Part shown: piece after piece, positions 37,410 through 56,900 of the stretch
Layout of the letters: each line of letters opens with the position of its first letter
Position numbering within the stretch: position 1 is the stretch's first letter
Assembly: GCA_040877705.1 (NCBI GenBank)
Contig: JBBDNJ010000297.1
Location: forward strand, 1-56,900
DNA length: 56,900 nt
Source: Candidatus Binatia bacterium
GTDB taxonomy: Bacteria; Desulfobacterota; Binatia; UBA9968
Reading direction: 5' to 3'
Position numbers and translations under genes: made by a program
Notes under the pieces: generated by a model
The model's input: only the letters and a program-made list of their open reading frames with translations
The model's database searches: none
Told to the model about the DNA's origin: nothing

Positions 37410-38042
37410 GTGAGTGAACAGGTACTCATTGCGACGTTAGGTTCGGAGCCTCAGGTTGTCACTCTGGTACTGGACCAGCTGCGGGAGAAGGGGAATCCGA
37501 TAGCGGAAGTGATAGTCGTGCACACCATGGGAGAATCAGTGCAGCATTCATTAATGCGTCTCAATGATGAGTTCAGGCGGGCGGGAAGCCCCCGTTACAG
37601 AGCCGTGACGGTGGAAGACAAAGGTTGGCCGGTAGCCGATATCGGTACGGAGGATGAAGTGGCGGCACTGTTGCGGACGCTCTACCGGACGGTCCTCGCC
37701 GAGAAGCGAGCCGGGAGGCTTGTGCACATGAGCATCGCCGGCGGACGAAAACCAATGGCGGTCTATGGAATGGCCGTCGCCCAGCTTCTCTTCGATGAGG
37801 ATGATCGAGTGTGGCACTTGCTTTCAGAAGGGTGGAAGCCGGGGGATGAGCGGGTGATGCATGCGAAACCTGGCGATGCAATTTCACTCCTGCCCGTGCC
37901 GGTGTTGCGCTGGAGTTCGGTGTCGCCAGTGATGACGGAGCTGGCGGTTCCTAACCGCGACCGGCAAGCGCCGCTTGCTAGGCTGCGGAAGAAAGAGGTC
38001 GAGGTTTCGCTCGACTTTCGCGGCCCAGGTCCAAACGATTGA
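37410..38042 (+). CDS. CRISPR-associated Cas_NE0113-family (CARF-like) protein
   Basis: VLIATLGSEPQVVTLVLDQL at the N-terminus and HMSIAGGRKPMAVYG match my recollection of the NE0113 (TIGR02584-type) family pattern (tlG.sPqvvTe...; h.SiAGGRKtM). No fused effector domain is evident in the 210 aa. GTG start. Confidence 0.65.
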   Translation: MSEQVLIATLGSEPQVVTLVLDQLREKGNPIAEVIVVHTMGESVQHSLMRLNDEFRRAGSPRYRAVTVEDKGWPVADIGTEDEVAALLRTLYRTVLAEKRAGRLVHMSIAGGRKPMAVYGMAVAQLLFDEDDRVWHLLSEGWKPGDERVMHAKPGDAISLLPVPVLRWSSVSPVMTELAVPNRDRQAPLARLRKKEVEVSLDFRGPGPND

Positions 38043-38246: not shown

Positions 38247-38642
38247 ATGAAAGCGATCAGATTGACCCCGGCAGAAAGAGCGGCGATCACAAGAAAGTAG
38301 CGACGGGCGAGCGCAAAGGCTCATGCTACAGCTCGAAACGCCAAGTTGTTTGCGAAATACGCTCTTGGCAAAGCGGGGTGGAAGGTTGCGTCTCTCGATA
38401 GCCCCTAAGGCTTCGAATACAAAGGCGTCGTGGACCTTGTGGCGGTCAAGCGAAACAACCGATCTCCCGATGAGCTTACGATCATGCTGGTTCAGGTTAA
38501 GGGTGGGAGCGCGAGAGTAACGAAGGAGGAGCTTTCGAGACTTCGGAGAGCTGCAAGCCACCCGCGGGTTACATGGAACGTGGCAGCAAAACCCGCTAAA
38601 AGCGTCCGCTTCAAGAAGTCCTTAGATTGGGAGACTGAATAA
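38247..38642 (+). pseudogene. decayed Hjc/PD-(D/E)xK-like small nuclease gene with two in-frame stops
   Basis: A single frame from ATG 38247 to the stop at 38640-38642 reads MKAIRLTPAERAAITRK*RRASAKAHATARNAKLFAKYALGKAGWKVASLDSP*GFEYKGVVDLVAVKR...IMLVQVKGG, with TAG at 38298 and TAA at 38406. The G-W-x-V ... DLVAV ... VQVK layout resembles archaeal-type Holliday-junction-resolvase-like nucleases. Its stop overlaps the cas10d ATG (TAATG). Confidence 0.45.
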
Positions 38643-41296
38643 TGGATCGAAAGGAAATCATGACTAAGGCGGCAGCATGGATGCAGGCGCGTGGCTGGAA
38701 AGAGAAACTTGCCAAGCGTCGAGGTTATGAGCAGAGCCTGTTTGAGCACAGCCTGATTGAGCTTGATGTTCTCCTTGAGCTTCTGCCGATCCTCGCGAGC
38801 CCGCGACACTACGGCCTAAGTGAAGCCGAGGAAGCAGTCCTGACAATCGCCGTGCTCGCCCACGATGTCGGTAAAGAAACTGACGCCTGGCAGGTCTACA
38901 TCGGCGATCCCCAGCCGGACCGCTGGGTGCCTCACATTCTTCCCGAGTTGACCAGAGCAGTGGTACCGGAGCTCTGTGCGACATTAGGGTTTTCGGAGCA
39001 AGGTGAGGCAGTTGAGCGCATCATGGCGCACTGTGCTGAGTTCCACCACAACCGGCCAGGAAGAAGTGATGGGGCCATCTTGGAAGCGATGCTTAGTGGC
39101 GGGTCGGATCGCTTTCTCACACTGGCCTATTTGGTCAAGGCCATTGACCACTTCTGCTCCGCTGCCACGGTTGCCGATGCCGAGGACGCGTTGAAGAATG
39201 ATCCCGCGCTGGGCCGGCATCTCGTCGTCGCGTCTCACGAAGCCATGGTTCGGGGCGTCTCGACGGCATTCCTTCACCACGCCGCTCGAGCCGAATTCCA
39301 GCAACGAGGATGGAAGCCTCTCCTGTATTTCTCCAACGCCACTTTATATGCAGCCGACCCTAGCGATCACCATAATATTCCCACGGCAGAAGAGATTGGC
39401 AACGGCCTCAAGACGGAAATTGACAGGTCCATCAGTCGAGACGTAACCCCACTGATGGTTGGAAGCCCCACAGGGAACATTCTCCCCAAGCCGGATCTCT
39501 TCGCCTTCAGCGAGTCCCGGCAGTACCTCCGCAGTGCCGCAAGCAAAATTAGTCCGCAAAGCTTCGCCAAGAAGAAGCTGCCGGCAAAACGCAAAGTGGT
39601 CGAGGACTACTGGAAACTCCAGGGCCGAACCACCAAACCCACGGATGCACAGGTTGAGGAAGAGTCCGCTCGCATCTCGGTAGCCCAGCCCGAGATGCTT
39701 GTCTTCAAGTTTTTCAAAGCCATGTTGGACCCGGACAAGGTCGAGGTTGTTGGTGAGGATGGCGCCGTTCTAGCCAAGAAGCTCTACGAGGAAACGTTCG
39801 GGTCTGGCAGTTGGGCTGCGCTCCAGTCCACGTCCACCATTATGCCAGCCAAGGACATGGGAAAGACTATCGACTACTTCTGGGCGCTGCCAGGTGCGGC
39901 GGTAGGCCACTCTCAAGTTACAAAGGTCGCAGAGCTTCCAAACGAGATTCGCGTGCAGGTATTGATTGATCTACTCGATGCTATCGCCCAGAAGGTCTAT
40001 TCAGCAATTAGCCGACCATCGCCGAGAGATAAGTTGTCTCAGGACATGGCCACAGCATTCATCAATGATCTCCTGAGGCCAATAGACGGCGGTAACGTTC
40101 AAGCTATTGCTCAACAGCAACTAAGCTACTACACACAGTCAAAGCCCTTTGCTGGAAAAGAGAGCGCGAAGGGAATTTATCTGTGTCCGATCTGTAATGC
40201 TCCTTTCGATCAGAATCATGGAATCAAAGCCTCGGCCGACTTCATCGAAAATCCACAGACCCACACTAATCGTGGGATAGCGCATGGATCCTTCGGTTAC
40301 ATCATGGTCTGCGTTACTTGCTACTACGAGCGGCTCCTCCTCCAGATACTTCTCGGGAGTCGTCCGGCGGAAATGATCACGCTTTTGCCCCGACTCAACC
40401 TGGGGCCGGGGAAAGGCGAGCAGTTGGTCAGCAAAGTCCAGGGTTGGGTAGAGGCAGCCAAAGGGCAGATGCGAGGTGAAACCGGCAACCTGGAGTTCGG
40501 ATTTTCGCTCGGTTTCACCGATCAAGCAGCCCGTCACATAAAGGAGCGTGACCCCTTTTCTCTAAAGCCCGAGGAGCTGCTCTCGCTCTTCAGTTACCGT
40601 TTTACCGCCGACACCCGGCAGAAAAGACGCCGAGAAGCGATGAGACGGCTTAAAGAGGAGTTCGATAACGACTTCGAAGCCCTTAATCTTGCCACTGGTC
40701 AATCCTTCGGGACATGGGACGATGCTGTTGAGGCCCTCATCGCAAATCGACTTAATCAGCAGGAGTTCAGGGCGATTCGTCGGGAGGTCTTTCGCCTCTA
40801 TGAAACGATACATCTGATTTGCGAGACGCCTAACTTGATCTTCATCCCGCTCAGTTACGAGATCGCGTCCGGTAACGACGAATCGGAAACGAGCCGAGGG
40901 CTGCGGCGGCTCCACGTGGCCTTGCTCCTGAGCCTTGTCTTTGACGCCTCTGTGGCCATTCACAAGACGGATGAACCAGTGGACTTCCGAGGCGGACTAG
41001 GGGCAGCCTACGTGCCTCCGATCCCGGCGGTCCGCTCTCTTGTGGGCTACGACTGGCTGTCCATCGGTGAGGCAAAGCGTTGGCTCTCCGCGATCGGCGC
41101 GGCAAGCCTGTTGGTGCGAGATACCGGTCTGCCCGCACGCTCCGCTCTTTATCAAATTCTTACGATGGACCCTCCGGAAAAGCTCGCTCGTCGCATTGAG
41201 GAAAAAGGCGACACTTCTCTGACGCCGCGTCATATTAGTTTAATCGAGCAGTTGCCAGCCTTTCACAGAACCCGGGAAAAGGAGGTGCGCCCGTGA
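38642..41296 (+). CDS. cas10d: Cas10d-like large subunit with N-terminal HD nuclease domain (type I-D-like)
   Basis: 884 aa with HD-domain residues near the N-terminus (LFEHSL; VLAHDVGKE, HD at 38861-38866; AEFHHNRPG). An internal Cys pair cluster (LCPICNAPF ... MVCVTCYYE) resembles the Cas10 Zn finger. No GGDD-type cyclase motif was seen. It heads an operon with Csc2-, Csc1- and Cas3'-like genes. Confidence 0.7.
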   Translation: MDRKEIMTKAAAWMQARGWKEKLAKRRGYEQSLFEHSLIELDVLLELLPILASPRHYGLSEAEEAVLTIAVLAHDVGKETDAWQVYIGDPQPDRWVPHILPELTRAVVPELCATLGFSEQGEAVERIMAHCAEFHHNRPGRSDGAILEAMLSGGSDRFLTLAYLVKAIDHFCSAATVADAEDALKNDPALGRHLVVASHEAMVRGVSTAFLHHAARAEFQQRGWKPLLYFSNATLYAADPSDHHNIPTAEEIGNGLKTEIDRSISRDVTPLMVGSPTGNILPKPDLFAFSESRQYLRSAASKISPQSFAKKKLPAKRKVVEDYWKLQGRTTKPTDAQVEEESARISVAQPEMLVFKFFKAMLDPDKVEVVGEDGAVLAKKLYEETFGSGSWAALQSTSTIMPAKDMGKTIDYFWALPGAAVGHSQVTKVAELPNEIRVQVLIDLLDAIAQKVYSAISRPSPRDKLSQDMATAFINDLLRPIDGGNVQAIAQQQLSYYTQSKPFAGKESAKGIYLCPICNAPFDQNHGIKASADFIENPQTHTNRGIAHGSFGYIMVCVTCYYERLLLQILLGSRPAEMITLLPRLNLGPGKGEQLVSKVQGWVEAAKGQMRGETGNLEFGFSLGFTDQAARHIKERDPFSLKPEELLSLFSYRFTADTRQKRRREAMRRLKEEFDNDFEALNLATGQSFGTWDDAVEALIANRLNQQEFRAIRREVFRLYETIHLICETPNLIFIPLSYEIASGNDESETSRGLRRLHVALLLSLVFDASVAIHKTDEPVDFRGGLGAAYVPPIPAVRSLVGYDWLSIGEAKRWLSAIGAASLLVRDTGLPARSALYQILTMDPPEKLARRIEEKGDTSLTPRHISLIEQLPAFHRTREKEVRP

Positions 41297-41904
41297 GAGT
41301 TCCCATTACCGTCCAGATCAAGCCTTTTGATATCGAGAGCGTCCAATCCAAAATCGATTCAGCGCGAGAGGCGTTGACTCGCTACCTCGATGAAGTGCCT
41401 CGGAAGTCAACTCGCTCGAAGCATGGCCTTATGGGACCGGTTGGAAAGATCCTGAGCGAAGTGAAGAGTGGGCGGCGCGATCCCGCCTCTCTCAAAGGTT
41501 ACGCTGTCCGTGTCCACGAAGCGACAAGCAGGAGCCCGTCTCCGGCAGGCCTTCAAGCACTCGAAGAGGGAATCGACCGGATAGTCAAATTACTCACCGA
41601 AGTTCCCATCACGGCACATGATCGCCTGCTCGACCGGCTAGACTACGGGCTCTACTACGACCTTCGTAAAAAGGAGCTCGAATCAAAAGAGATGCGACGC
41701 CAGGCATGGATCGGATTCCTCCGTAACAAGTACGATACAGAGGCGAAGCTTTCTGAAACCTGGGGGGAGCAAATCGCCACTTTTGACGAACTTTACCTTC
41801 CGCGGAAAGCTGAGGGATCGAAGACCAAGAAAGCTACGGCAAAGCAACACGACATTACCGCGTTCTGGGAGTCGCAGGGTGTCACTACCGATGAGGAGGA
41901 GTAA
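41293..41904 (+). CDS. hypothetical helical protein, candidate stand-alone small subunit (Cas11d-like)
   Basis: 203-aa charged, helix-rich ORF. Its GTG start overlaps the cas10d stop (GTGA) and its stop abuts the cas7d ATG. The role is assigned by position only. Confidence 0.35.
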   Translation: MRVPITVQIKPFDIESVQSKIDSAREALTRYLDEVPRKSTRSKHGLMGPVGKILSEVKSGRRDPASLKGYAVRVHEATSRSPSPAGLQALEEGIDRIVKLLTEVPITAHDRLLDRLDYGLYYDLRKKELESKEMRRQAWIGFLRNKYDTEAKLSETWGEQIATFDELYLPRKAEGSKTKKATAKQHDITAFWESQGVTTDEEE

Positions 41905-42855
41905 ATGACGATAATCGCAGAGAAGTTGAAGGGCTACTTGGTAGACAGGCCACGGCCGCTGATTGGGGCTGAAACGATCCAACTTATTCTTTTACGCGAA
42001 GTCCTCGACTATACCGTGCTGAGGACGGAAGAGACCCGTGAGCTGAACTCCGTCAACACGCCGCTCTCCGAAGCGGATCGGGCTACGACAGCGAAGCGGG
42101 TTGCCTTTCTTGGCTCCAAGCAGAAAGCCGCCGAATCCCGCGAGATGGAATACTTGCTCCGGTCCGCCACGGCGGCTTCTGGCAAGGACATACCATCCGG
42201 AAAGAATGGCGAAGGGTGCTATCTAAAGGACAATCTCTGTCTCCGGTGTCCCCGCTGCGGACTTTACGGCGCGACGGCGCTTGGTCAGGAAGCGAACATC
42301 AAGCACCGGATCGAATACTCAACGGCTTTCTCTCTCCTTCCGTTCGATCAGATATCGGAAGAAATCACTTTCAATGCTGTCAGCGAATTGGACCAGACAA
42401 CCGGTCAGGCATTGGGTAGTCGAAATGTCGTCAAACCCGCAAGCCTTTTCCCGTCCATTGTGACCCTGAAGGGGGTAACGCGAGAAGAGTTGGTTCTTAC
42501 GGTAAAAACCCTGCTGGCTTGCAAAAGCTATGGCGCCGAATCGCGTATCGGCGGCGACTGCCGGAATACATTTTTTGGTGTCATTGCCGGATGGGAGGAG
42601 ATGATAACACCCCTGGAGCTGACGGTGGAACTTTACGACCAGAAGGACGGCTTGGACCCCGCAGCTCTGAAAAACCTTCTGGTGCAAAAATACAAGGCGC
42701 TCGCCGGGAATCCTGATCGCATTTTGGTACTCGACCCTGCCGAGGTGGACGCGCTGTTCCAGGAGTGCGCTCAAACACCTCTCGACCGGGCTTTCCTCGA
42801 CAAGGCATACAACGACATTACCGAGTATCGTAGGGCCCAAGGGGAGAAAGTTTAA
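41905..42855 (+). CDS. csc2: Csc2/Cas7d-like backbone subunit
   Basis: 316 aa with a CLRCPRCGLYG Cys motif, FPSIVTLKG and KSYGAESRIGG segments that fit my recollection of Csc2. The size and the position between the large subunit and the Cas5-like gene also fit. Confidence 0.6.
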   Translation: MTIIAEKLKGYLVDRPRPLIGAETIQLILLREVLDYTVLRTEETRELNSVNTPLSEADRATTAKRVAFLGSKQKAAESREMEYLLRSATAASGKDIPSGKNGEGCYLKDNLCLRCPRCGLYGATALGQEANIKHRIEYSTAFSLLPFDQISEEITFNAVSELDQTTGQALGSRNVVKPASLFPSIVTLKGVTREELVLTVKTLLACKSYGAESRIGGDCRNTFFGVIAGWEEMITPLELTVELYDQKDGLDPAALKNLLVQKYKALAGNPDRILVLDPAEVDALFQECAQTPLDRAFLDKAYNDITEYRRAQGEKV

Positions 42856-45209: not shown

Positions 45210-45968
45210 ATGGATAGCCATTTTAGCCCTAGCCAAAGCGATCCTCTTGAACTCAACGCACAGGGAATTCGGCTCTACGCCGGACGTCTTTATAACCACG
45301 ATTACCTCTGGTTTTCGTCGTTCGAGATCTCAAAGACCGCCGCCATCCTGCCACTGATTCACAACTACGCCCTGAGCTACGCACTTTGCGGTTACTCGTA
45401 CGGAATCTATACAGGGAGTACGCCGCGTTACGCCGAGGACCTCAATGCCATGCAAGCCTACGCCACTCCGGCTCGGCCGCAGGCGCTATCGGCTCGAACT
45501 CGGCTCACCCAAAACGCAGTCAACTCACGCACGCTGAGAACTGACGACGCTCCCCGCGGGAGCAACAGCCCGGCGCTGGGATGGCGCCTCGTTCTCGATC
45601 CAGTCTGGCACGACGGTGCGGGCGCAGGCGACCTCCTTGGGTTCAGCTTTTATCTCTTTGCCCGCGCCTCATTTCATCCACCTTCCGTGGTCAGACTTGG
45701 CAAGAAAGGCTGCCCGGTCCGGCTCGACTGGCAGGAAATTACGGGAGCGGTGGGGCTCTTTACCGATAACGCGGTTCGCCCCTCCCATGCCGTCAACCCA
45801 CTTGATGTTCAGGGTGAAATCATTTCCTACGAACCGTTGCCCATCCCCCCGCACCTGATTTTTCGGGTGGCCGAGATCCAGAAGGACTGGTTTGTGTTTG
45901 CTGGTGAGCACGTTGTCCACATACCACGGCGATTCGCCTTGCCCAAAGGGGCCGCTGCTCAAATCTGA
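45210..45968 (+). CDS. csc1: Csc1/Cas5d-like subunit
   Basis: 252 aa. The N-terminal HDYLWFSSFEISKTAAILPLIHNYALSYAL fits the Csc1 pattern as I recall it (..dylfFasrE......p.ihNYALtYAL). Confidence 0.6.
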   Translation: MDSHFSPSQSDPLELNAQGIRLYAGRLYNHDYLWFSSFEISKTAAILPLIHNYALSYALCGYSYGIYTGSTPRYAEDLNAMQAYATPARPQALSARTRLTQNAVNSRTLRTDDAPRGSNSPALGWRLVLDPVWHDGAGAGDLLGFSFYLFARASFHPPSVVRLGKKGCPVRLDWQEITGAVGLFTDNAVRPSHAVNPLDVQGEIISYEPLPIPPHLIFRVAEIQKDWFVFAGEHVVHIPRRFALPKGAAAQI

Positions 45969-45972
45969 ATCT

Positions 45973-46875
45973 ATGGCTATCCAGCCCTCTAAGTCCTTAC
46001 AAGAAGCGCTTCACCAAGCGATGCTTGAAATTGCCAATCTTCGTAACAGACTGCCAGGAGCCAAAGCTGGCCAAGTTTTGGATGCTTTCGACAGGATCGA
46101 AAACATTTGGGCCAAACAAGATGTGGAGCAGTTTCCCTTCAACACGTTGTCCAAGGAAATAGACACCATCCGAATCGAGGTACGGGAAGCTTTCAGTGGA
46201 GAACTCGATCTAGCAGTAGATCGGAGATCTGCTGTTTTCGACTTGGTGGTTGCTCTTGATCACCGATTCCGGATTTACAGTGAGCTGGTAGCCTTCGATC
46301 CCATTTATCACAGTTTGGAAAGACGCCTTCAACGAATTGACGATGTCTTGCCGTCACGAAATTATGCGATAGGAGACCTACTTTCTGAATTACGCCCTTC
46401 CTTTGATCCTAATTTGAAAAGAAGACTTGAGAGCGCCGTAGAACATTTCGGACGTGAGGAATACGAATCGGTTCTTACCGAATGCGGCAAAGCCGAAGGG
46501 ATGTTTTTCTCTCACTTCAAAAGACTGATGGCATCCTTCGGGATTAGCGAACTTCCGGATCAAACTGGTTCCGCCATCCGCGCTATTCGCAGGATACTCG
46601 AATCAAAACAGGACACGCGAGGGCTTTCTCTTGCCAAGAGTAGCCGCCTTGAACATTTCGTACTCTACATGTCTGAAACGCTCCATTATTTTCGTAATCT
46701 TGGGGCTCATGATCGCGCCGAAGAAGTCGGAAACGAAAAACTTCCCGAATGGCAGATTCAACGTAGGGAGCTTTTTACCCAAAAACCGGAATATGCTCGG
46801 CTTGCTTTAGTCTTAGCAGTTCAGATCGCGATTGAATTACAGGCTCTTTTGGAACGACAGGAATTGAAGACATGA
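45973..46875 (+). CDS. HEPN-motif protein (unknown N-terminal helical domain + C-terminal HEPN-like domain)
   Basis: 300 aa from ATG 45973, which lies 4 nt after the cas5d stop. The C-terminal third has LESAVEHFGREEYESVLTECGKAEGMF followed by HYFRNLGAHD. RNLGAH (46693-46710) fits the HEPN R-[N]-x3-H catalytic motif and is followed by a final helix. The stop overlaps the cas3' ATG (ATGA). Confidence 0.55.
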   Translation: MAIQPSKSLQEALHQAMLEIANLRNRLPGAKAGQVLDAFDRIENIWAKQDVEQFPFNTLSKEIDTIRIEVREAFSGELDLAVDRRSAVFDLVVALDHRFRIYSELVAFDPIYHSLERRLQRIDDVLPSRNYAIGDLLSELRPSFDPNLKRRLESAVEHFGREEYESVLTECGKAEGMFFSHFKRLMASFGISELPDQTGSAIRAIRRILESKQDTRGLSLAKSSRLEHFVLYMSETLHYFRNLGAHDRAEEVGNEKLPEWQIQRRELFTQKPEYARLALVLAVQIAIELQALLERQELKT

Positions 46876-48881
46876 TGTTCACGGTGCAAGCTTGTGGACT
46901 TCCGGTGCTAGAACATCCGGCCTCCCGGGGGCCCCCCTTGTACCCTCACCAGGTTGCGATGTGGAAGGCATGGGAGGAGCACCCGGCGATGCTCCTCACA
47001 GCAAAGACGGGGACCGGTAAGACGCGGGCGGCGATGTTGCCGGTACTGAAGCGGCGCGAGGGGGCGGTGGCGGTGTATCCCACAAATGAGCTTTTGAGGG
47101 ATCAGGTGCGAGCTGTAGCGAAGTTTGCGACGGAAGAAGGAATCGAGCCGCTCGTGTGGTTGCCGGAAATGTGGCATGCCTCTGATCGAGCCGAGCTATA
47201 CAGCCGCGCAGCTCACGTCCTGATTCCTGTAGACGGCAACATTCTGGATCAATGGCAGGATGTGATGCACTGCAAAAGTCGGGGTGAAACGTTGCGACGG
47301 CTTTTCGATCCGGACAAGCCCAAGATCATCTTTACCAATCCGGATATTTTGTTTCTCATCCTGGGGCTTCGGTATCACGCCGAGCCCTTTGAAGCACTGA
47401 GGCGCTACGAGACGTTGATTCTGGATGAGTTCCACCTTTATCAGGGCGTAGAGCTGGCCCATGCCCTTGCTATGGTTGCACTTGCCCGCGGGTTCGGGAT
47501 CTTCCGGCGGTTAGTTTTGCTCTCCGCGACACCGCATCAGCAAGTCCGTTTATTGTTGGACCGGGCGATCAGTCCGACGATAATTGACTCGCATATCGAA
47601 ACGCATTCTGCATCTGGATGCTCGCGCACGGCGGTCCATTCCGTCGAGGTCGAGCCGATCCAACTTACGGGTGGGGACCCGATTGAAATTCTCCTTTCTC
47701 GAATTGTCGATCTTAGGCATGCACTCGAAAGATTGCGTAGCGACATCCCTGATGAGGACTACCTTCCGGCGGTGGTCATCGTTAATTCGGTTCTGAACGC
47801 CATCCGCCTGGAAGATCGGCTGGTGGAGTCGGGTTTTCCCCGAAACACTCTGGCGATCATCAGAGGGCTCTCGCACCGGGCTATAAGGGACACCAGAGGC
47901 AAACTCTTAGCGCTCGGAACCTCAGCCGTCGAGGTGGGGGTAGACTTTCGCTGCGATTATCTTTTCTTCGAGGCTTTGGAAGCCGCTTCGTTCCTTCAGC
48001 GGTTCGGCCGCGTGGGTCGTCATGGGCCAGGGAAGGCTATTGTTCTGGTGCCACCCAACGCGTTTCAGGGGATGAGCAGCATTCCGGGCGCCATCGATCG
48101 AGCCACGTTCGAGGAGCGCGTCTATGCCTGGTACCCGTCGGCAAGTGCATACCCTTGGTTCGTCACGACCGAAAGTGGCATGACAACCGTCAGAGCCCAG
48201 GGCGAGAACCTGATTTCAACAGTTCAGCAAGACCGAAACGTGACGCCAGAAGTAATTTCCAAGCTGCGCGAGAAGATCGATGCAATCCTGGCCGATCTTG
48301 CAGAGCGCCTCGGATGCCCGGATAGGAACCTACAGGCCAAAGGCGCCTTTGAGCGTTGCGCGACTGGGAAGAAAAGCGCCCACTGGCTTGATGTGTACCG
48401 CCGGTTGAACCGTTTCCGGACGTCGCTACCAAGTGTCAGGATTCATGACTTCATGGAGCAGAGCCGGCGCAAGGAATGGGATCTGGGCGAATATGACATT
48501 GACGTGGCCACTCTCCTGAAGCGCGCCGTGGGACTCACTTGGAACGATAAGTTGGAAACACTGACAATCAAGGGGCTCGGAAAATACCGCCGGGTCCATG
48601 CCAGCGAGATATTCAGTGACGACGACTGCGGTATGATTCACGAGACACAGAACTGGCCACAGTTGCGGCTCTACCAGGACGGTGAGTCAACACCAGTTTC
48701 GGATCTCATGGCACGTGAAAATCATATCTTCACGGTCGTCCCCAAGGTGGAGGTAGAATCCCAGTTGGATTGGCGATTGCCGGTGTTTGAAGCGGGTAGG
48801 TATCTGGTTGCCTTTGATGGAGCGGCGTTGTTGCTTTTGGAGCTCTGGAAAAAAACAAAAGAGGCAACAAGGGCAACGTGA
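46872..48881 (+). CDS. cas3: Cas3' superfamily-2 helicase without HD domain
   Basis: Has Walker A (AKTGTGKT), a DEFH box (LILDEFHLY), SAT (LLSATP) and motif VI (LQRFGRVGRHG). No HD motifs are present, consistent with the HD being on the large subunit as in type I-D. Confidence 0.8.
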   Translation: MMFTVQACGLPVLEHPASRGPPLYPHQVAMWKAWEEHPAMLLTAKTGTGKTRAAMLPVLKRREGAVAVYPTNELLRDQVRAVAKFATEEGIEPLVWLPEMWHASDRAELYSRAAHVLIPVDGNILDQWQDVMHCKSRGETLRRLFDPDKPKIIFTNPDILFLILGLRYHAEPFEALRRYETLILDEFHLYQGVELAHALAMVALARGFGIFRRLVLLSATPHQQVRLLLDRAISPTIIDSHIETHSASGCSRTAVHSVEVEPIQLTGGDPIEILLSRIVDLRHALERLRSDIPDEDYLPAVVIVNSVLNAIRLEDRLVESGFPRNTLAIIRGLSHRAIRDTRGKLLALGTSAVEVGVDFRCDYLFFEALEAASFLQRFGRVGRHGPGKAIVLVPPNAFQGMSSIPGAIDRATFEERVYAWYPSASAYPWFVTTESGMTTVRAQGENLISTVQQDRNVTPEVISKLREKIDAILADLAERLGCPDRNLQAKGAFERCATGKKSAHWLDVYRRLNRFRTSLPSVRIHDFMEQSRRKEWDLGEYDIDVATLLKRAVGLTWNDKLETLTIKGLGKYRRVHASEIFSDDDCGMIHETQNWPQLRLYQDGESTPVSDLMARENHIFTVVPKVEVESQLDWRLPVFEAGRYLVAFDGAALLLLELWKKTKEATRAT

Positions 48882-49082
48882 TTCGGGGTGGGTTTGGGAG
48901 CACGTTTCGCCTGTCTGTCGTGTCGGCACAGGCAGGGCGGATTATGTGTCATGGGGATTTTCAAAGCCGTGATCGTGTTCGTGGACGACGGATCGCACAG
49001 CGCGACCGGCGACTTGCGGAGCGTTTGTCCGTGATTCGGTTATAATAACTTGCGAGCAAATTAACTAAAGGAGAGTAACACG

Positions 49083-49376
49083 ATGAAAGTCTATAGGGGA
49101 ATCGTGAAAGGCAATACGATCTTGCTGGAAGAGAAGCCGGATTTGCCGGACGAATGTCCGGCGCTCGTGGAGATCAAGCCAATCGACGAGGCGCGGGACC
49201 GGGAGATCGCGCGGAGGCACATCGCATTGCTCAAGAAGGCGCCGCGCGTGGGTAAGTCGCTCTACAAGAAACGCGAGGAGCTTTATGAGGGGAGAAAAAG
49301 GGGACAGGCTGCTTTTGTGCACAAGCGCAAAGATGAAAAAGGATTGTGGTGCAGCGGTGCGGGCGGGATAGATTAG
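49083..49376 (+). CDS. DUF104/AF2212-like small antitoxin-type protein, paralog 1
   Basis: MKVYRGIVKGNTILLEEKPDLPDECPALVEI fits the pattern of small antitoxins of the 'MK.i.g.y.nG.i.l.e...LPeg..v.v.i' type. It is a paralog of the 49898-50116 gene. Confidence 0.5.
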   Translation: MKVYRGIVKGNTILLEEKPDLPDECPALVEIKPIDEARDREIARRHIALLKKAPRVGKSLYKKREELYEGRKRGQAAFVHKRKDEKGLWCSGAGGID

Positions 49377-49396
49377 GCGCGGGGAACCGGGAGCAA

Positions 49397-49801
49397 ATGA
49401 TTTCTAAAACGAATGCTATTACGTATGCTTTTCGCAAACCCAGATTTCCCTTGATCTGCGACCTTGGCGGTTTTCTCGTCGCCGCCGAATCGCCCGCCGC
49501 TTTGCAGCGCCGTCTTGCCGGTAGGGACCTTCCTACGGAGAGAAAAGTCCGGTTAGTCGACGCACGCGGGGAAGGCTGGATGCTCCTTCCAAACGAAATG
49601 ATCGTGGCTCCCGGCTTTACGACGAGAAGGTGGCGCAAGATCGAAATCATTCGCTTATTCAACGGCAGCCGCAACGCGAAAGAAACCGGCCAGCGCTATC
49701 CAGAACATGTGATAGCAAACAGACGCCTCGACGCCATCGTTTGCGAAATCGCAGCGCTTTTGTCTCGAGAATGGACCGCCGCTTCAAGACATCGTTGCTG
49801 A
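49397..49801 (+). CDS. hypothetical protein
   Basis: 134-aa ORF from ATG 49397, downstream of antitoxin-like paralog 1. No family was recognised. Confidence 0.3.
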   Translation: MISKTNAITYAFRKPRFPLICDLGGFLVAAESPAALQRRLAGRDLPTERKVRLVDARGEGWMLLPNEMIVAPGFTTRRWRKIEIIRLFNGSRNAKETGQRYPEHVIANRRLDAIVCEIAALLSREWTAASRHRC

Positions 49802-49897
49802 AGTGCATCGTATGAGACGCGAGACACGAAAACGATATACCTAAATCCCAGAAAACAGTTGGGAGATAGAGTAACCCGGCCAAAACCAGGAGGCAGA

Positions 49898-50116
49898 ATG
49901 AAACCATACCGAGGGGTTGTAAGAGGCAATACGGTGATCTTGGAGGAGACGCCGGAGGGGGCCGAGGGCGCGGAGGCGATCGTGTTGCTGAAAGTTTCTG
50001 AGGAGGAGGATCAGATAATTGTCCAGCGCCAGAAGGCGATGCTGCAAAAGGGCTTTCCGATGGGCAAATTACACTACAAAAAACGGGAAGAGTTGCACCG
50101 TGGAAATGAAAAATGA
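49898..50116 (+). CDS. DUF104/AF2212-like small antitoxin-type protein, paralog 2
   Basis: MKPYRGVVRGNTVILEETPEGAEGAEAIVLL...KLHYKKREELH parallels paralog 1 (..KSLYKKREELY). A GGAGG site lies upstream, and the stop overlaps the next ATG (ATGA). Confidence 0.55.
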   Translation: MKPYRGVVRGNTVILEETPEGAEGAEAIVLLKVSEEEDQIIVQRQKAMLQKGFPMGKLHYKKREELHRGNEK

Positions 50117-50454
50117 CTAGACGCGTAAAGTTGAAATCTAAGGACGCGGCGGCGCTGGAAGAATTTGTGCGAAGTTTGCGGTCCGCACTAGGGAAAAACT
50201 TGCTTGAGGCGAAACTCTTCGGTTCCAAGGCCACAGGAAGAGATCAACCGGATTCAGACATCGATGTGCTCGTCGTCGTGAATCAGAACGGCGTGGAGAC
50301 CGAGGATAGGGTTCTGGACATCGCGTTCGATGTCAACCTCAAGCATGACGTCTATATCTCGCCGCGGGTCATTGACCGCTCGATTCTCTCAGATCCGGTA
50401 TGGAGCATCACGCCTTTTCTTCGGGCCGTTGCAAAAGAAGGGATTCCGCTTTGA
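50113..50454 (+). CDS. minimal nucleotidyltransferase (MNT-type) protein
   Basis: LFGSKATGRDQPDSDIDVLVVV matches the GSxxxG...DxD polymerase-beta-type nucleotidyltransferase motif of MNT components of MNT/HEPN modules. Confidence 0.8.
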   Translation: MTRRVKLKSKDAAALEEFVRSLRSALGKNLLEAKLFGSKATGRDQPDSDIDVLVVVNQNGVETEDRVLDIAFDVNLKHDVYISPRVIDRSILSDPVWSITPFLRAVAKEGIPL

Positions 50455-50499
50455 AGGCGGAACGAAAAAAAATGAGCGATGGGAAGATGAGCTGAAAAG

Positions 50500-51087
50500 A
50501 TGGCTGACCGGGACGATAAATCACGCCCTAATTTGATTGCACCGCACGGCGGCTATCGCGAGCTGAAGTCTTATCAGAACGCGGAGATAGTCTATGACGC
50601 AACCCTTGCGTTCTGCGATAGGTTTGTCAGCCGTCGTTCGCGTACGCATGACCAGATGGTACAGGCTGCGCGCAGCGGTAAGCAAAATATCGCCGAAGGC
50701 AGCATGGCATCAGGCACGTCAAAGAAAACCGAACTCAAGCTGGTGGGCGTGGCGCGGGCCAGCCTCGAAGAGCTGCTGCTGGACTACGAGGATTATTTGC
50801 GGCAGCACGGACTGGAGATCTGGGAAAAAACCCACTCAACCGCTCAGGTTGTCAGAAAGCTGGCTTACGCCAGCAATAGGTCCTATGGGTCGTATAAGCC
50901 CTATATTGAAGAAAACTCCCCGGCCCTTGCCGCGAATACGCTGATTTGCCTGGTTCACCAAACGAACTATCTGCTCGACCAGCAACTACGCCAGCTTGAA
51001 CAGCAGTTTTTGGAAGAGGGCGGCTTTACGGAGAAACTCTATCGAGTCCGAAGCCAGGCAAGGAAGAGTCGAGGCTATGGCAAGTGA
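50500..51087 (+). CDS. four-helix-bundle protein (23S rRNA intervening-sequence / Avd-like family) with suffix domain
   Basis: YRELKSYQNAEIVYDATLAFCDRF...MVQAARSGKQNIAEGS is the characteristic pattern of this family. Confidence 0.7.
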   Translation: MADRDDKSRPNLIAPHGGYRELKSYQNAEIVYDATLAFCDRFVSRRSRTHDQMVQAARSGKQNIAEGSMASGTSKKTELKLVGVARASLEELLLDYEDYLRQHGLEIWEKTHSTAQVVRKLAYASNRSYGSYKPYIEENSPALAANTLICLVHQTNYLLDQQLRQLEQQFLEEGGFTEKLYRVRSQARKSRGYGK

Positions 51088-51649: not shown

Positions 51650-52621
51650 ATGGATAAAGATTTCTCTCTTCACCACTTCCGTTTCCACCTTGAGCCCAAA
51701 GCGTCGTTGCACATGCCCGCATACAACAAGGGCAATGTGATCCGCGGTGGGTTCGGCGGCACGTTTCGGCGGATTGTTTGCCATGCCAATTGCCGGGAGC
51801 CGGAGACTTGCGAACTGCGGAATGTATGTCCGTACACGGCGGTGTTTCATCCGTTCGTTCCTGAGGGTTCGGAGAAGGTCAGCAAGAACCGGGATATTCC
51901 GCGGCCTTTTGTCATCAAGCCGCCGTTGGAGACGAAGGAAACCTATTTGCCGGGTGAGCGCCTGTCGTTCGATATGGTGCTGGTGGGAAAAGTCAAAGGC
52001 TACCTGCCGTACTTCATCGTGACCTTCAAGGAGCTTTCTCAGGCGGGACTCGGACGCGGCAGAGCGCCAATGGAGTTGGTTTCTGTCGGTCACGTGAGCC
52101 GCGACGGCGATGAGACGCCGGTCTATACGAGAGAAAACAACTTGGTTCAACCGCCGGCTAGCGCTATCTCGTGGGCGGATTTGTCCGCTTCTCATAGCTC
52201 GAACAATGGCGCCAGTGACATTACCCGAGTCACATTGAAATTCCTGACGCCGACGATGTTGAAAGCAAATGGGTCTCCCGTACGTAAGCCCGCCTTTGCA
52301 CCGGTTGCCAAGCGTCTTCGGGACCGTATCAACGCATTGTCCTATTTTTATTGCGGCACTGCCCTGGACATCGACTTTAAGGGCTTTGGCGAAGACTCCG
52401 ATAAAATTGTAACGATTGCGGATTCTACTCGATGGGTGGAGTCGTCGCGCTATTCGCGCCGTCGTGACGTGAACCATGATCTGAGTGGTTTTACAGGCGA
52501 GGTTTCTTTCGAAGGAGACTTGGGGCCGTTTATGCCGTATCTCAAGTTGGGCGAGTATCTGCACGTCGGCAAGAATGCCGTCTTCGGCAACGGCTGGTAT
52601 CGAATCGTCGACGCGATATAG
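51650..52621 (+). CDS. cas6: Cas6-family CRISPR RNA endoribonuclease (RAMP)
   Basis: 323 aa with an N-terminal RAMP-like region (FRFHLEPKASLHMPAYNKGNVIRGGFG) and a C-terminal glycine-rich loop (HVGKNAVFGNGWY). It lies directly upstream of cas1. Confidence 0.75.
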   Translation: MDKDFSLHHFRFHLEPKASLHMPAYNKGNVIRGGFGGTFRRIVCHANCREPETCELRNVCPYTAVFHPFVPEGSEKVSKNRDIPRPFVIKPPLETKETYLPGERLSFDMVLVGKVKGYLPYFIVTFKELSQAGLGRGRAPMELVSVGHVSRDGDETPVYTRENNLVQPPASAISWADLSASHSSNNGASDITRVTLKFLTPTMLKANGSPVRKPAFAPVAKRLRDRINALSYFYCGTALDIDFKGFGEDSDKIVTIADSTRWVESSRYSRRRDVNHDLSGFTGEVSFEGDLGPFMPYLKLGEYLHVGKNAVFGNGWYRIVDAI

Positions 52622-52712: not shown

Positions 52713-53903
52713 ATGGCTGACGAGGCTCTAAGCGAAATTGTTCAAGCACCACAAGCCGAACGCTATTCGCACGCTCAATTCAATTTATTTACCGGTGCGG
52801 CCGAGCTGATTCCCGTCGACGTTGCCGAGCCGGCTGAAGAAGACCGCCAGATGCGGATCGACGAAGGCATTTCGCTCGTCAAGAGCGAAGACGGCTCGCA
52901 GCTCATCCTTTCCGGCTATGGGTTATTCTTGAGCAAGAAGAGCGAGCGGCTCCTCGTGCGCAAGGGCAAGGACGTGATCTACCAGTTTCCATTCTTTCGA
53001 ATCAAAGAGGTCGTGGTCGGTTCGAAGGGGATTAGCCTGTCCACGGATTTCCTGGAAGAGGTGTGCTTGCGAGGGATTCGGTTGAGCTTCCTGGACTTTT
53101 CCGGCAAGCCATACGCCATGCTTACCTCGCCGATGCTGACCGCCACGGTGCAAGCGCGGCGGGAGCAGATACTGGCCTTCACCGACAAGCGCGGCGTGGA
53201 ATTTTCCAAGGCGGTGGTTTTGGGGAAAATCAAGAATCAGGAGCGGCTGCTGCGCTACTTCGGAAAGTATATCAAGCAGCAGTCGGAGGATCGCTTTTCC
53301 CGGATCGATGCAATGGCCGGCCAACTAAGACTGCTATGGAAGAAAGTGCCGGTCATCGATGGCAGCTCGGTCAACGAAACTCGGGGAACTCTCATGGGAA
53401 CGGAGGGAACCGCCGGCCGGATCTATTGGGAAGCCGTGAAAGAGATCATCGGCCATCGAGTCGAGTTCTTTGGCCGCGAGCACCGCGGCGCGACTGACGG
53501 GGTGAACTCTCTGCTGAACTATGGCTACGGTATTCTCTATTCTCAGATCTGGGGCGCCGTGCTGAATGCCGGTCTCGAGCCGTTCGCCGGTTTTCTCCAC
53601 GTCGATCGGCCCGGCAAACCATCGCTCGTCCTGGATATGGTCGAAGAATTTCGCCAATCGGTTGTCGATCGGACGGTGATCGCCCATATCAACGTGGGCA
53701 CGAACATCGGCATGAAAGACGGCTTGTTAGACGCGGACACGAGGAAAAACATCGGCGACAAGATCGTCGAACGCCTGTTCGCCACCGAGACCTATCACGG
53801 GAAGCAGTATCAGATTCGTTCGATCATTCAGATGCAGGCAAGAAAATTATCGGGTTTTCTGCGCGGCGAGGGAGCGTATAAAGCGTTCTCGTTCAAATGG
53901 TAA
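52713..53903 (+). CDS. cas1: Cas1 integrase
   Basis: Has NSLLNYGYGILYS and AGFLHVDRPGKPSLVLDMVEEFR (the conserved Cas1 His / Asp-Glu block). The real start may be the internal ATG at 52851 (MRIDEG...), which would give a more typical length. Confidence 0.9.
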   Translation: MADEALSEIVQAPQAERYSHAQFNLFTGAAELIPVDVAEPAEEDRQMRIDEGISLVKSEDGSQLILSGYGLFLSKKSERLLVRKGKDVIYQFPFFRIKEVVVGSKGISLSTDFLEEVCLRGIRLSFLDFSGKPYAMLTSPMLTATVQARREQILAFTDKRGVEFSKAVVLGKIKNQERLLRYFGKYIKQQSEDRFSRIDAMAGQLRLLWKKVPVIDGSSVNETRGTLMGTEGTAGRIYWEAVKEIIGHRVEFFGREHRGATDGVNSLLNYGYGILYSQIWGAVLNAGLEPFAGFLHVDRPGKPSLVLDMVEEFRQSVVDRTVIAHINVGTNIGMKDGLLDADTRKNIGDKIVERLFATETYHGKQYQIRSIIQMQARKLSGFLRGEGAYKAFSFKW

Positions 53904-54065: not shown

Positions 54066-54344
54066 ATGGAAGAGCTTAGGACGCTGGTCATCTACGACAT
54101 CGAGAACGACAAGATTCGCTTGAGGATCTCGGAGACTTGTCTCGACTACGGGCTGGTCCGCATTCAGTACAGCGCTTTTCTCGGAACGCTTAACCGGAAT
54201 AAGCGCGAGGAATTGTTTTTAAAGCTCTCGTCCATACTGGATGACAATGCCGGAAAGATTCTTGTTCAGCCGATCTGCAATAAAGATCTAAGAGACGTAT
54301 TGCTCAAAGAAAACGGCAAACCGGCTGCGTCGGAGGTTTTGTGA
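54066..54344 (+). CDS. cas2: Cas2
   Basis: 92 aa. The N-terminal LVIYDIENDKIRLRISETCLDYGLVRIQYSAF is the typical Cas2 beta1-alpha1 pattern. Confidence 0.85.
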   Translation: MEELRTLVIYDIENDKIRLRISETCLDYGLVRIQYSAFLGTLNRNKREELFLKLSSILDDNAGKILVQPICNKDLRDVLLKENGKPAASEVL

Positions 54345-54916
54345 TCTCTATCCGGGTTAACGACATCAAGCAGTACGCCTATTGTCCGAGGGTTGTTTTC
54401 TATCAGTATTGCATGCCGGTGGAGAAGAAAGCGACCTGGAAGATGGAACAAGGAAAGATCGCGGAAGAACGGATCGACCAGTTAGAGAAGCGAAGAAAGC
54501 TACGCGAGTACCGCCTGGAGGAGGGAAGCAGAAAGTTTCACGTTTGGATGAGTTCCAAGCGGCTTGGGCTGAGTGGAAAACTTGATTTGCTAATCGACAG
54601 TCCGGAAGGGCTATTTCCGGTCGATTTCAAAATGACCACCGGCCGGCCCCACAAGAATCATCTTTTTCAGTTATGTGGATATGCGCTCTTGCTGGAAGAC
54701 CAATATGGCCGGGAAGTAAGCAAAGGTTTTGTTTACCTGATTCCACATGACGACGCGGTCGTGTTTGATCTCACAGAGGCGGTTAAGTCGGAAACTGAAA
54801 GGATGATCGATGAGATGCGGCGAATGATCGAGGAGGAGAAAATGCCGCCGCCGACCCCGGTCAGGAATCGATGCGCGGATTGTGAGTATAGAAATTTTTG
54901 CGGGGATATTTTTTAA
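54341..54916 (+). CDS. cas4: Cas4 RecB-like nuclease with Fe-S cluster cysteines
   Basis: N-terminal Cys (YAYCPRVVFY), a RecB motif (GKLDLL...LFPVDFK), QLCGYALLLE, and a C-terminal CADCEYRNFC. The GTG start overlaps the cas2 stop (GTGA). Confidence 0.88.
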   Translation: MISIRVNDIKQYAYCPRVVFYQYCMPVEKKATWKMEQGKIAEERIDQLEKRRKLREYRLEEGSRKFHVWMSSKRLGLSGKLDLLIDSPEGLFPVDFKMTTGRPHKNHLFQLCGYALLLEDQYGREVSKGFVYLIPHDDAVVFDLTEAVKSETERMIDEMRRMIEEEKMPPPTPVRNRCADCEYRNFCGDIF

Positions 54917-55024: not shown

Positions 55025-56900
55025 GTTTCAAAGATCGTCCCGATGAAGAGGGAACTGAAAGATAACCAGCTTACCGAGCGCAGTCAGCCCTAAGGGTTTC
55101 AAAGATCGTCCCGATGAAGAGGGAACTGAAAGCACGAGTGACTCCATTTTGCCGCCACGGTATTTTTTGTTTCAAAGATCGTCCCGATGAAGAGGGAACT
55201 GAAAGATCGAAGAGGACCTTCAGGTTGACTTAGGCCTTGGTTTCAAAGATCGTCCCGATGAAGAGGGAACTGAAAGGTTCCAAGCGTCTCATGAGTTCGC
55301 GAGCCTCGCGCGTTTCAAAGATCGTCCCGATGAAGAGGGAACTGAAAGGCTCGCCGCCCAGCGCGCCCGGCGTGCCCTCGGTGGGTTTCAAAGATCGTCC
55401 CGATGAAGAGGGAACTGAAAGTAGCCAAGATCCCGCGCGTCCTGCGACTTTCGCCGCGTTTCAAAGATCGTCCCGATGAAGAGGGAACTGAAAGTCCATG
55501 CGCCAGTCGATTTCCATGAACGCGCAACCCTGTTTCAAAGATCGTCCCGATGAAGAGGGAACTGAAAGTAGAGTACGACGCGCCGGTGTCGACCAGTACC
55601 TTGGTTTCAAAGATCGTCCCGATGAAGAGGGAACTGAAAGTGATCAAGCAGTGCTTCGCGCTGCAGGCGCGGTTTCGTTTCAAAGATCGTCCCGATGAAG
55701 AGGGAACTGAAAGGTAGAAGGCGTTGTGATGGAATGCGCTCCCGCTGTGTTTCAAAGATCGTCCCGATGAAGAGGGAACTGAAAGTTCGGCAAAGTGCCG
55801 AGCTCGGCTTCGATCTTTTGTTTCAAAGATCGTCCCGATGAAGAGGGAACTGAAAGGAGGACGTCGAGACCCGCTACGACAACGCAATTGCGTTTCAAAG
55901 ATCGTCCCGATGAAGAGGGAACTGAAAGTGAAGAGCTTAGCGGCCAAGGAGGCGAGCGCGAACCGTTTCAAAGATCGTCCCGATGAAGAGGGAACTGAAA
56001 GTCGGAGAAGAGCGATCGGATGGTGGAACGCTCTTTACGGTTTCAAAGATCGTCCCGATGAAGAGGGAACTGAAAGAACGAAATGCCGGATGAGATAACG
56101 AAGGAGTACGAGTTTCAAAGATCGTCCCGATGAAGAGGGAACTGAAAGACTTTAAGTCCACATGTATCCCGAAGGCGTCGCTGGTTTCAAAGATCGTCCC
56201 GATGAAGAGGGAACTGAAAGAACAACTGGTGAGAATCAGCGCGCTGAAACAACTGGTTTCAAAGATCGTCCCGATGAAGAGGGAACTGAAAGCGTCGATC
56301 GCTTCCTGGAGTCCTTCGGTTACCGAGGTTTCAAAGATCGTCCCGATGAAGAGGGAACTGAAAGAGCCATTCTGCGCTTCGGAGAATGTAACCGTTACGG
56401 TTTCAAAGATCGTCCCGATGAAGAGGGAACTGAAAGCATTAGTTGAGTCAGGTAGACCTGCAGAATGGCATGTTTCAAAGATCGTCCCGATGAAGAGGGA
56501 ACTGAAAGAATAATAACCAATCGGCGCTGACATTTAACTTCTGGCGTTTCAAAGATCGTCCCGATGAAGAGGGAACTGAAAGGAAAATCCTACTGGGGAA
56601 TCCGGGTTGGTAATGATCTGTTTCAAAGATCGTCCCGATGAAGAGGGAACTGAAAGTTTCGAGACTTTGCATAACTCGGATCGCGTTCATGAGGTTTCAA
56701 AGATCGTCCCGATGAAGAGGGAACTGAAAGGTCGCGTTCCATGACAAAAGCTTATTAGCCTCGGGAGTTTCAAAGATCGTCCCGATGAAGAGGGAACTGA
56801 AAGTGGGAAGACCAGTCATGAACCGGTGATTGCCTAAATTCGTTTCAAAGATCGTCCCGATGAAGAGGGAACTGAAAGACAGGTACATGGCTTCAGCGTC
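55025..56900 (+). CRISPR. CRISPR array: 26 identical 37-nt repeats GTTTCAAAGATCGTCCCGATGAAGAGGGAACTGAAAG, 25 complete spacers of 34-38 nt plus a partial one, truncated by the window end
   Basis: Repeat starts were read directly at 55025, 55096, 55169, 55240, 55312, 55385, 55458, 55532, 55604, 55677, 55749, 55820, 55892, 55965, 56040, 56112, 56184, 56256, 56328, 56400, 56472, 56546, 56620, 56694, 56767 and 56842. The 37-nt length and the ...GGGAACTGAAAG 3' end resemble known type I-D repeats (…GGGACTGAAAC). Confidence 0.98.

Follow-up and report, generated by a model that had tools for sequence, protein, structure and literature searches.

Gene X, a gene of a family without a name, lies between csc1 (cas5d) and cas3' in a type I-D CRISPR-Cas operon of a Candidatus Binatia bacterium. 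We propose, with a probability of about one half, that its 300-residue product is a protein associated with the effector complex whose C-terminal domain is a HEPN-type ribonuclease (RNase), where both the catalysis and the binding are what we infer. The operon was studied in positions 1 to 56,900 of contig JBBDNJ010000297.1 (assembly GCA_040877705.1), and this whole stretch of 56,900 nucleotides (nt) is called the window below. The proposal draws on two residues, R241 and H246, that do not vary in the family, on a modelled C-terminal domain that retrieves HEPN structures, and on a position directly after a cas5-family gene in two kinds of CRISPR-Cas module.

Conserved residues and predicted fold of gene X

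The initial annotation of the window described gene X as a 300-residue open reading frame (ORF) whose start lies 4 nt beyond the csc1 stop and whose end forms an ATGA overlap with cas3', and the coordinates bear this out in every part: the ATG start occupies 45973-45975 and the csc1 TGA 45966-45968, while the TGA stop at 46873-46875 shares its ATGA with the cas3' ATG at 46872-46874. Judged from the sequence, this spacing fits translational coupling of gene X with its neighbours, and no Shine-Dalgarno-like sequence precedes the start at the customary spacing. An alternative in-frame TTG start at 45892 would lengthen the protein, but the homologues start at the ATG instead. As a measure of selection we compared the gene with its counterpart in L016 (L numbers denote loci compared with the window), which is the closest long relative of the window operon and was used for the divergence comparisons. 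The non-synonymous differences (pN) are 0.19 and the raw synonymous differences (pS) 0.77, giving a pN/pS of approximately 0.24 and thus purifying selection. Its conservation and the purifying selection on it exclude a spurious ORF.

Members of this family are few, although the family itself is genuine. Among 5.8 billion proteins a word-indexed search retrieved 26 homologues at 52–99% identity, an exhaustive hidden Markov model search against 1.84 billion cluster representatives yielded no more than 39, and a genome scan with the closer of the alignments placed the gene in just one species-representative genome, an Acidobacteriaceae metagenome-assembled genome (MAG), and in five metagenome contigs. 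Neither the query nor any single member (per member E ≤ 10) matches a sequence family in Pfam, NCBIfam, PADLOC or the PDB, and the lone sub-threshold matches of members are to Abi_2 (0.21) and PaREP1 (0.024), both of which are HEPN families. Profile searches against PDB sequences returned designed helical repeats only, cluster look-ups yielded no family name, and a search of a viral structure library gave no useful match. A PF05168 HEPN gene at L001 was considered as a profile partner for gene X and dropped, that protein being without the R..H motif.

The starting point for a HEPN assignment was the octapeptide FRNLGAHD, for which the initial annotation gave the Arg codon as 46693-46695 and the His codon as 46708-46710. 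Both positions are exact and correspond to R241 and H246. Conservation of these two residues, named there as a check on the proposal, is complete among all full-length homologues: they are invariant in 22 of 22 sequences of alignment A1, in 27 of 27 of alignment A2 and in 20 of 20 of alignment A5, which covers the C-terminal domain. Alignment A2 consists of 27 full-length or near full-length sequences with 20–68% identity, and its only invariant columns are P127, R241, H246 and W260. In the C-terminal-domain alignment N242 and P258 are each kept in 19 of the 20 sequences, and R276, R265 and R225/E227 are strongly conserved besides.

How much the motif means depends on this conservation. Composition-preserving shuffles of the Arg-rich protein are expected to contain 2.3 occurrences of Rx4-6H each, and R[NDH]x3H arises in shuffled sequences with P = 0.074, so that the motif alone, in one sequence, is not beyond chance; its significance comes from the conservation of R241 and H246 across the homologues. 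At the sequence level, an invariant RNxxxH in a family that extends down to 20% identity is typical of an active site and not of small subunits.

By the structural definition, a HEPN domain consists of two alpha-hairpins and carries an Rx4-6H in which N, D or H, as a polar residue, comes after the Arg; this motif terminates helix 3 (H3) or opens the loop between helices 3 and 4 (PMC3710099). A full-length AlphaFold2 (AF2) model of the protein (m79f2e8604a9d; predicted local distance difference test, pLDDT, of 77) has two domains, a four-helix domain at the N terminus (residues 9-125) and a six-helix domain at the C terminus. For the first of these there is no family match in Pfam, NCBIfam or PADLOC. 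A Foldseek search with the whole model was uninformative and returned G protein-coupled receptors (GPCRs) and other helical bundles; the model of the C-terminal domain alone was the informative one. The GPCR matches probably reflect bundle geometry only, and a membrane protein is unlikely given the charged residues throughout the helices.

Modelled on their own (mf484011389d9; pLDDT 84.5, predicted template modelling score 0.79), residues 141-300 find HEPN proteins in 9 of their 12 top Foldseek matches in the PDB, among them 1ufb, 2hsb, 3o10 (probability 1.00, TM 0.54/0.61), 1wol, 1o3u and 1wwp. Csm6 (5fsh, 6tug, 5yjc), 1wty and AbiV appear lower in the same list. The helices of the domain are H1 (146-160), H2 (164-188), an inserted helix (198-211), H3 (226-252) and a kinked H4 (259-299). 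This topology fits the published definition: the helices pair into two alpha-hairpins, one further helix separates H2 from H3, H4 is kinked, a polar residue comes after the Arg, and the model places R241-N242-x3-H246 within the final third of H3, from where the chain runs into the H3-H4 loop.

The initial annotation had anticipated much of this anatomy. Its question about the fold is answered in its favour, as the helical core of the modelled domain is HEPN-like and a search with this domain returns HEPN structures. The motif does lie in the C-terminal third, and the helix expected after it is present, in a kinked form (259-270 and 272-299). Other parts need correction: the stretch taken for the first HEPN helix really spans H1 plus H2, and the unassigned N-terminal portion is not 170 residues long but a domain of about 125 residues, after which a linker runs to approximately residue 145. 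The HEPN assignment as such gains from the invariant Arg and His and from the HEPN-like model, while the RNase or toxin role proposed with it stays putative.

Several observations weigh against the assignment. The Foldseek E-values are weak (0.06–0.9) and helical bundles are easily mismatched, so the HEPN matches amount to fold-level support and not proof. No sequence profile links the protein to any HEPN family (Pfam, NCBIfam, PADLOC, PDB). As modelled, both R241 and H246 fall within one long helix, and confidence is low at just this place, with pLDDT below 50 at residues 246-248 of the full-length model. The acidic hallmark of helix 2 (Ex3[KR]) is conserved only in part, 15 of 20 sequences having a Glu at 175 or 176 but no Ex3[KR] pattern, and in alignment A2 two distant members align with R-x2-H spacing.

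Genomic context and exchange of gene X

In every locus with enough flanking sequence, gene X lies directly 3' of a cas5-family gene, and we found no homologues outside a CRISPR context. The loci form two clades. Clade A (38–99% identity) has the order csc1-X-cas3' in all flanked loci, namely the window, L001-L006, L012, L016 and L018, and X-cas3' is visible on the shorter contigs L017 and L019. All the flanked loci belong to one type I-D variant, in which cas11d is a gene of its own, and the source of L006 is an uncultured Acidobacteriaceae MAG. Clade B (20–31% identity; L007-L011, L013 and L014) has gene X as the fourth gene after a large subunit, a Cas7 and a Cas5, with no adjacent cas3'. 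Its large subunit of 633–656 residues has an N-terminal HD motif and weak Cas10 matches, its Cas7 is Csm3-like and its Cas5 is Csx10/Cmr3-like. Across the loci the junctions around gene X are mostly gaps of 4–8 nt or overlaps.

The large subunit, Cas7 and Cas5 of clade A show no BLASTP similarity to those of clade B, and gene X is therefore the element common to both clades. Because clade B retains cas5 without cas3', the constant partner of gene X is cas5 and not cas3'. Gene X is a fixed core gene of a type I-D sub-lineage, not a local add-on. The initial annotation had asked whether homologues co-occur with csc1 and cas3' elsewhere, which they do in every clade-A locus. The combination with type I-D that it called unusual is, however, no attachment at one locus, the gene being fixed in the sub-lineage and present in a III-like module as well.

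This clade-B module is also found inside other systems. On two unrelated contigs, L007 (6206-10906) and L013 (6266-10858), it separates cas1 from cas2-cas4 in a type I locus, and such an insertion suggests that the module shares the adaptation genes and arrays of the host system. One type III subtype has been described in which Cas7 and Cas5 are each present once and Cas10 keeps an active HD domain but has a dead polymerase (PMC10910872). By that description the clade-B module appears to fit subtype III-H, which is also characterised by having no adaptation module of its own, as gene content and sizes agree and the large subunit has the HD motif and the weak N-terminal Cas10 matches.

One clade-B locus bears on the question of what a HEPN nuclease at this position would cut. 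The module at L011 has no neighbouring cas genes and no cas6 on its 8.5-kb contig, as might be expected if the protein trimmed or matured CRISPR RNA (crRNA) inside the complex, either at the 3' end or by a second cut, and the fold and motif evidence for such a role is the same as for the RNase that we propose. However, a normal cas6 is present in all clade-A loci and in L007, and reviews of type I-D and of type III describe no crRNA maturation step that requires a HEPN nuclease, so that we consider a processing role very unlikely.

Gene X has also been subject to exchange. In the comparison with L016 the flanking genes have 88–95% protein identity and a pS of 0.25–0.37, whereas gene X has 66% protein identity with a saturated pS (0.77) and cas11d has 49% with a pS of 0.76, likewise saturated. 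In sliding windows the nucleotide identity is approximately 0.9 over csc2, csc1 and cas3' but 0.6–0.7 over gene X and most of cas11d (41501-41939), and it falls from the higher to the lower level at the borders of gene X, at approximately 45900-46950. This drop at the borders shows replacement of gene X as a cassette through recombination; gene X and cas11d have been exchanged by recombination and the operon is a mosaic. The cassette replacement suggests arms-race pressure, for example with anti-CRISPRs, and hints that gene X is itself a target in that race.

The same hint of an arms race would suit a protein without nuclease activity that guards the complex against anti-CRISPRs, or that acts as an adaptor or regulator for the recruitment of Cas3'. 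Close linkage to cas3' fits such a function, by the ATGA overlap in the window and by an abutment or overlap of 0–12 nt in the other clade-A loci. The argument does not extend to clade B, which keeps gene X with no adjacent cas3', and it leaves the HEPN-like fold and the invariant RNxxxH unexplained; we regard this explanation, too, as improbable to a high degree.

The replacement of gene X together with cas11d, as the two genes that differ in this way between the window and L016, can also be counted in favour of a structural role. The protein would then be a highly diverged, non-catalytic helical subunit resembling Cas11 or the C-terminal domain of Cas10 that lines the minor filament or caps the complex at Cas5. 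Instead of cutting RNA, its conserved Arg and His would make contacts with crRNA, with the target strand or with a partner protein. Like the Cas11 small subunits, among them the 'highly diverged Cas11' of III-H, it is all-helical and encoded in the effector operon. Moreover, the clade-B large subunit is short and gene X is the sole candidate for the Cas11 role in those modules, which resemble the subtype with single Cas7 and Cas5 and a polymerase-dead Cas10 mentioned above. The clade-B protein may in fact be the 'highly diverged Cas11' listed for III-H in the 2025 classification, with a structural role, and this counts against an RNase. In type I-D, however, the gene co-exists with a cas11d, so that these loci already encode a small subunit, and an hhalign comparison of gene X with the Cas11d family of its own locus gives a probability of 0.2%. 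No member matches the PADLOC profiles for Cas11, Csm2 or Cmr5, and Cas11 is absent from the top 50 PDB fold matches of residues 141-300, among which HEPN domains dominate. With 300 residues in two domains the protein is approximately twice the usual size of a Cas11 (about 100–200 residues in a single bundle), and the invariant RNxxxH is an enzyme-like pattern of conservation. A structural subunit of this kind is the main alternative, which we nevertheless think unlikely.

Proposed role and relation to known systems

As a HEPN RNase, the product of gene X would be a two-domain protein that either forms a subunit of class 1 effector complexes or binds tightly to them. The N-terminal four-helix domain would dock it to the Cas5/large-subunit end of the crRNA complex, and the C-terminal domain would be a metal-independent ribonuclease with R241, N242 and H246 in its active site. 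In known HEPN RNases the active site is generally reported to consist of two Rx4-6H motifs, and for this reason the protein would need to pair with a second copy of itself to complete the site. Dimers are not mentioned for HEPN RNases in PMC3710099. The pairing, or else a release from inhibition, would be governed by the complex upon target recognition or upon an attack on the complex. In this way an RNA-cleaving arm would be added to the DNA-degrading type I-D machine of Cas3' and the Cas10d HD domain. Type III systems have their RNA-level arm supplied in trans by Csm6/Csx1 proteins that are activated by cyclic oligoadenylate (cOA), and both type I-D and III-H are reported as having no cOA signalling pathway.

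A free toxin is less likely than a regulated subunit of this sort, because no conserved antitoxin-like partner gene adjoins gene X, and as the toxin of a toxin-antitoxin pair the protein is unlikely on the same count. A bolder version of the proposal is that gene X defines a new Cas family, an integral, target-activated HEPN RNase subunit that would give type I-D and III-H-like systems RNA cleavage independent of cyclic oligoadenylate. We offer it tentatively, as a possibility with the odds somewhat against it.

Among known proteins, Csm6/Csx1 of type III (CARF-HEPN) share with gene X the link to CRISPR, a C-terminal HEPN-type domain and a conserved Rx4-6H, and both presumably give an RNA-level arm of immunity. 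Unlike them, the product of gene X has no CARF sensor and no Rossmann domain, its N-terminal 125 residues being four helices, and its gene belongs to the effector operon itself, as the next gene after cas5, in systems that are reportedly without cOA signalling. It has no sequence similarity to Csm6/Csx1 and no CARF matches in scans with Pfam, NCBIfam and PADLOC. The best fold matches, with TM 0.5–0.6, are the minimal HEPN proteins associated with MNT (PF05168 type; 1ufb, 1o3u, 1wol, 2hsb) and the HEPN domain of sacsin (3o10), which have the same four-helix core and the same insert between H2 and H3. Gene X differs from the minimal HEPN proteins in that it has no profile match, encodes an additional N-terminal domain of 140 residues and has no adjoining MNT gene.

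Nucleases placed on class 1 complexes are known from type VII, with Cas14, and from the HNH or PD-(D/E)xK fusions of I-E2, I-F4 and I-E3 (PMC12669027). The logic is the same as that proposed here, a nuclease being recruited to a Cas5/Cas7-based complex via an adaptor, but the domain would be HEPN and not beta-CASP, HNH or PD-(D/E)xK, and it is encoded by a separate gene and not as a fusion. The type I-D systems with gene X also retain their original nucleases, the Cas10d HD domain and Cas3'. A further parallel is PrrC, an anticodon nuclease that is kept latent by the type Ic restriction enzyme EcoprrI (PMC3710099). PrrC is a HEPN RNase that backs up a DNA-targeting immune complex, as we propose for gene X, although the coupling of gene X to Cascade is hypothetical and PrrC, unlike gene X, carries an ABC-ATPase domain at its N terminus.

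HEPN domains and CRISPR-linked HEPN RNases are already well known. What is undescribed in the type I-D review and in the 2023 and 2025 surveys is a CARF-less, HEPN-like core gene that follows cas5 in type I-D and in III-H-like modules, and full-text literature searches found no HEPN protein in type I-D. A caveat to this novelty is that the clade-B protein may already carry the label 'Cas11' in the description of III-H, and gene X may help to clarify the true nature of that 'diverged Cas11'. Type I systems are regarded as purely DNA-targeting and as having given up the dormancy-inducing arm with which type III acts at the RNA level. If the protein is an RNase of the effector complex, some type I systems would have kept or regained an RNase arm, wired to the complex and not to second messengers, and a DNA shredder of the Cas3 type would also cut RNA, either the transcript or collaterally. 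The occurrence of gene X in a type I-D lineage and in a III-like module makes it a marker for the proposed path from type III to type I-D, and under the same condition gene X, being found in both kinds of module, would also count as a molecular relic of that transition. A compact RNase that is tethered to a complex and possibly activated by its target would also have potential uses in diagnostics and in programmable RNA cleavage.

The operon and array in the window

The plus strand of the window encodes a class 1 CRISPR-Cas operon, as seen in the list of ORFs and in scans with Pfam, NCBIfam and PADLOC (Table 1). The locus contains the components that define type I-D, which are a Cas10d with an HD domain, Csc2/Cas7d, Csc1/Cas5d, a separate Cas3', an adaptation module and an array.

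Table 1. Positions of gene X, its domains and motifs, the surrounding operon and the CRISPR array in the window.
Feature	Coordinates	Strand	Basis or remark
csx14-like gene	37410-38042	+	
cas10d, HD large subunit of type I-D variant	38642..41296	+	PADLOC PDLC01192 Cas10d, 1122 bits; HDVGK motif in translation
cas11d, separate small-subunit gene	41293..41904	+	PADLOC PDLC01194 Cas11d, 9.2e-77
csc2/cas7d	41905..42855	+	PF18320 1.4e-42; TIGR03157 1e-32
SIR2_2/TPR-like gene, 766 residues	42874-45174	+	SIR2_2 PF13289 3.5e-10
csc1/cas5d, directly 5' of gene X	45210..45968	+	TIGR03159 2.6e-17; PADLOC Cas5d
gene X, 300-residue product, family without a name	45973..46875	+	ATG start, TGA stop
N-terminal all-helical domain, residues 1-125, helices 9-26, 32-45, 56-73, 87-125	45973..46347	+	AF2 model, pLDDT 85–94 over residues 10-100
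Pro127, invariant, inter-domain linker, LP motif	46351..46353	+	alignment A2, 27 sequences
C-terminal HEPN-like domain, residues 146-300	46408..46872	+	model mf484011389d9, Foldseek, topology
R241-N242-L-G-A-H246, candidate HEPN catalytic motif (R-phi-x3-H), near end of helix 3	46693..46710	+	
P258-x-W260 (LPxW), directly after R-N-x3-H motif	46744..46752	+	W260 invariant, P258 in 19/20
cas3' helicase (type I-D), ATGA overlap with gene X	46872..48881	+	TIGR03158 1.6e-43; DEAD, Cas3-like_C_2 domains
four-helix-bundle gene	50500-51087	+	TIGR04258 suffix domain, 5.9e-23
cas6	51650-52621	+	ORF homologous to annotated Cas6 in L001-L006
cas1	52713-53903	+	ORF homologous to annotated Cas1 in L001-L006
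cas2	54066-54344	+	ORF homologous to annotated Cas2 in L001-L006
cas4	54341-54916	+	ORF homologous to annotated Cas4 in L001-L006
CRISPR array	55025..56878	+	at least 26 copies of 37-nt repeat GTTTCAAAGATCGTCCCGATGAAGAGGGAACTGAAAG; extends toward window end

In published type I-D systems Cas11d is translated internally from cas10d (PMC10212523). The lineage with gene X differs from these, as its cas11d is a gene of its own that overlaps the stop of cas10d.

The SIR2_2/TPR-like gene lies among the effector genes, with csc2 on one side and csc1 on the other. By tblastn it is missing from 10 of the 10 other clade-A loci, and homologues of its product, 32–33% identical, are stand-alone genes that lie near toxin-antitoxin or GTPase conflict systems and not near CRISPR. 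It could represent a defence gene that was inserted here on a single occasion. Alternatively, by analogy with TPR-CHAT and Cas7-11, its product could be an NADase effector linked to Cascade.

Upstream, close to cas10d, are a Fic-domain gene (36084-37142, plus strand) and the csx14-like gene, a member of the Csx14/NE0113 family, which is CARF-like or ring-nuclease-like. A gene of this family beside cas10d is odd, type I-D being regarded as without cOA signalling, and no homologue of it was found in the other compared loci.

The four-helix-bundle gene that adjoins cas6 encodes a '23S rRNA-intervening-sequence' protein, and a gene of the same Pfam family adjoins cas6 in the clade-B locus L007 (3769-4203). 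Between cas3' and the four-helix-bundle gene are approximately 1.6 kb (48881-50500) with short ORFs only. Within and just before this interval, the stretch 48866-49296 is 77–80% identical to a part of L018 in which cas6 fragments lie, and to judge from this similarity it may be a decayed remnant.

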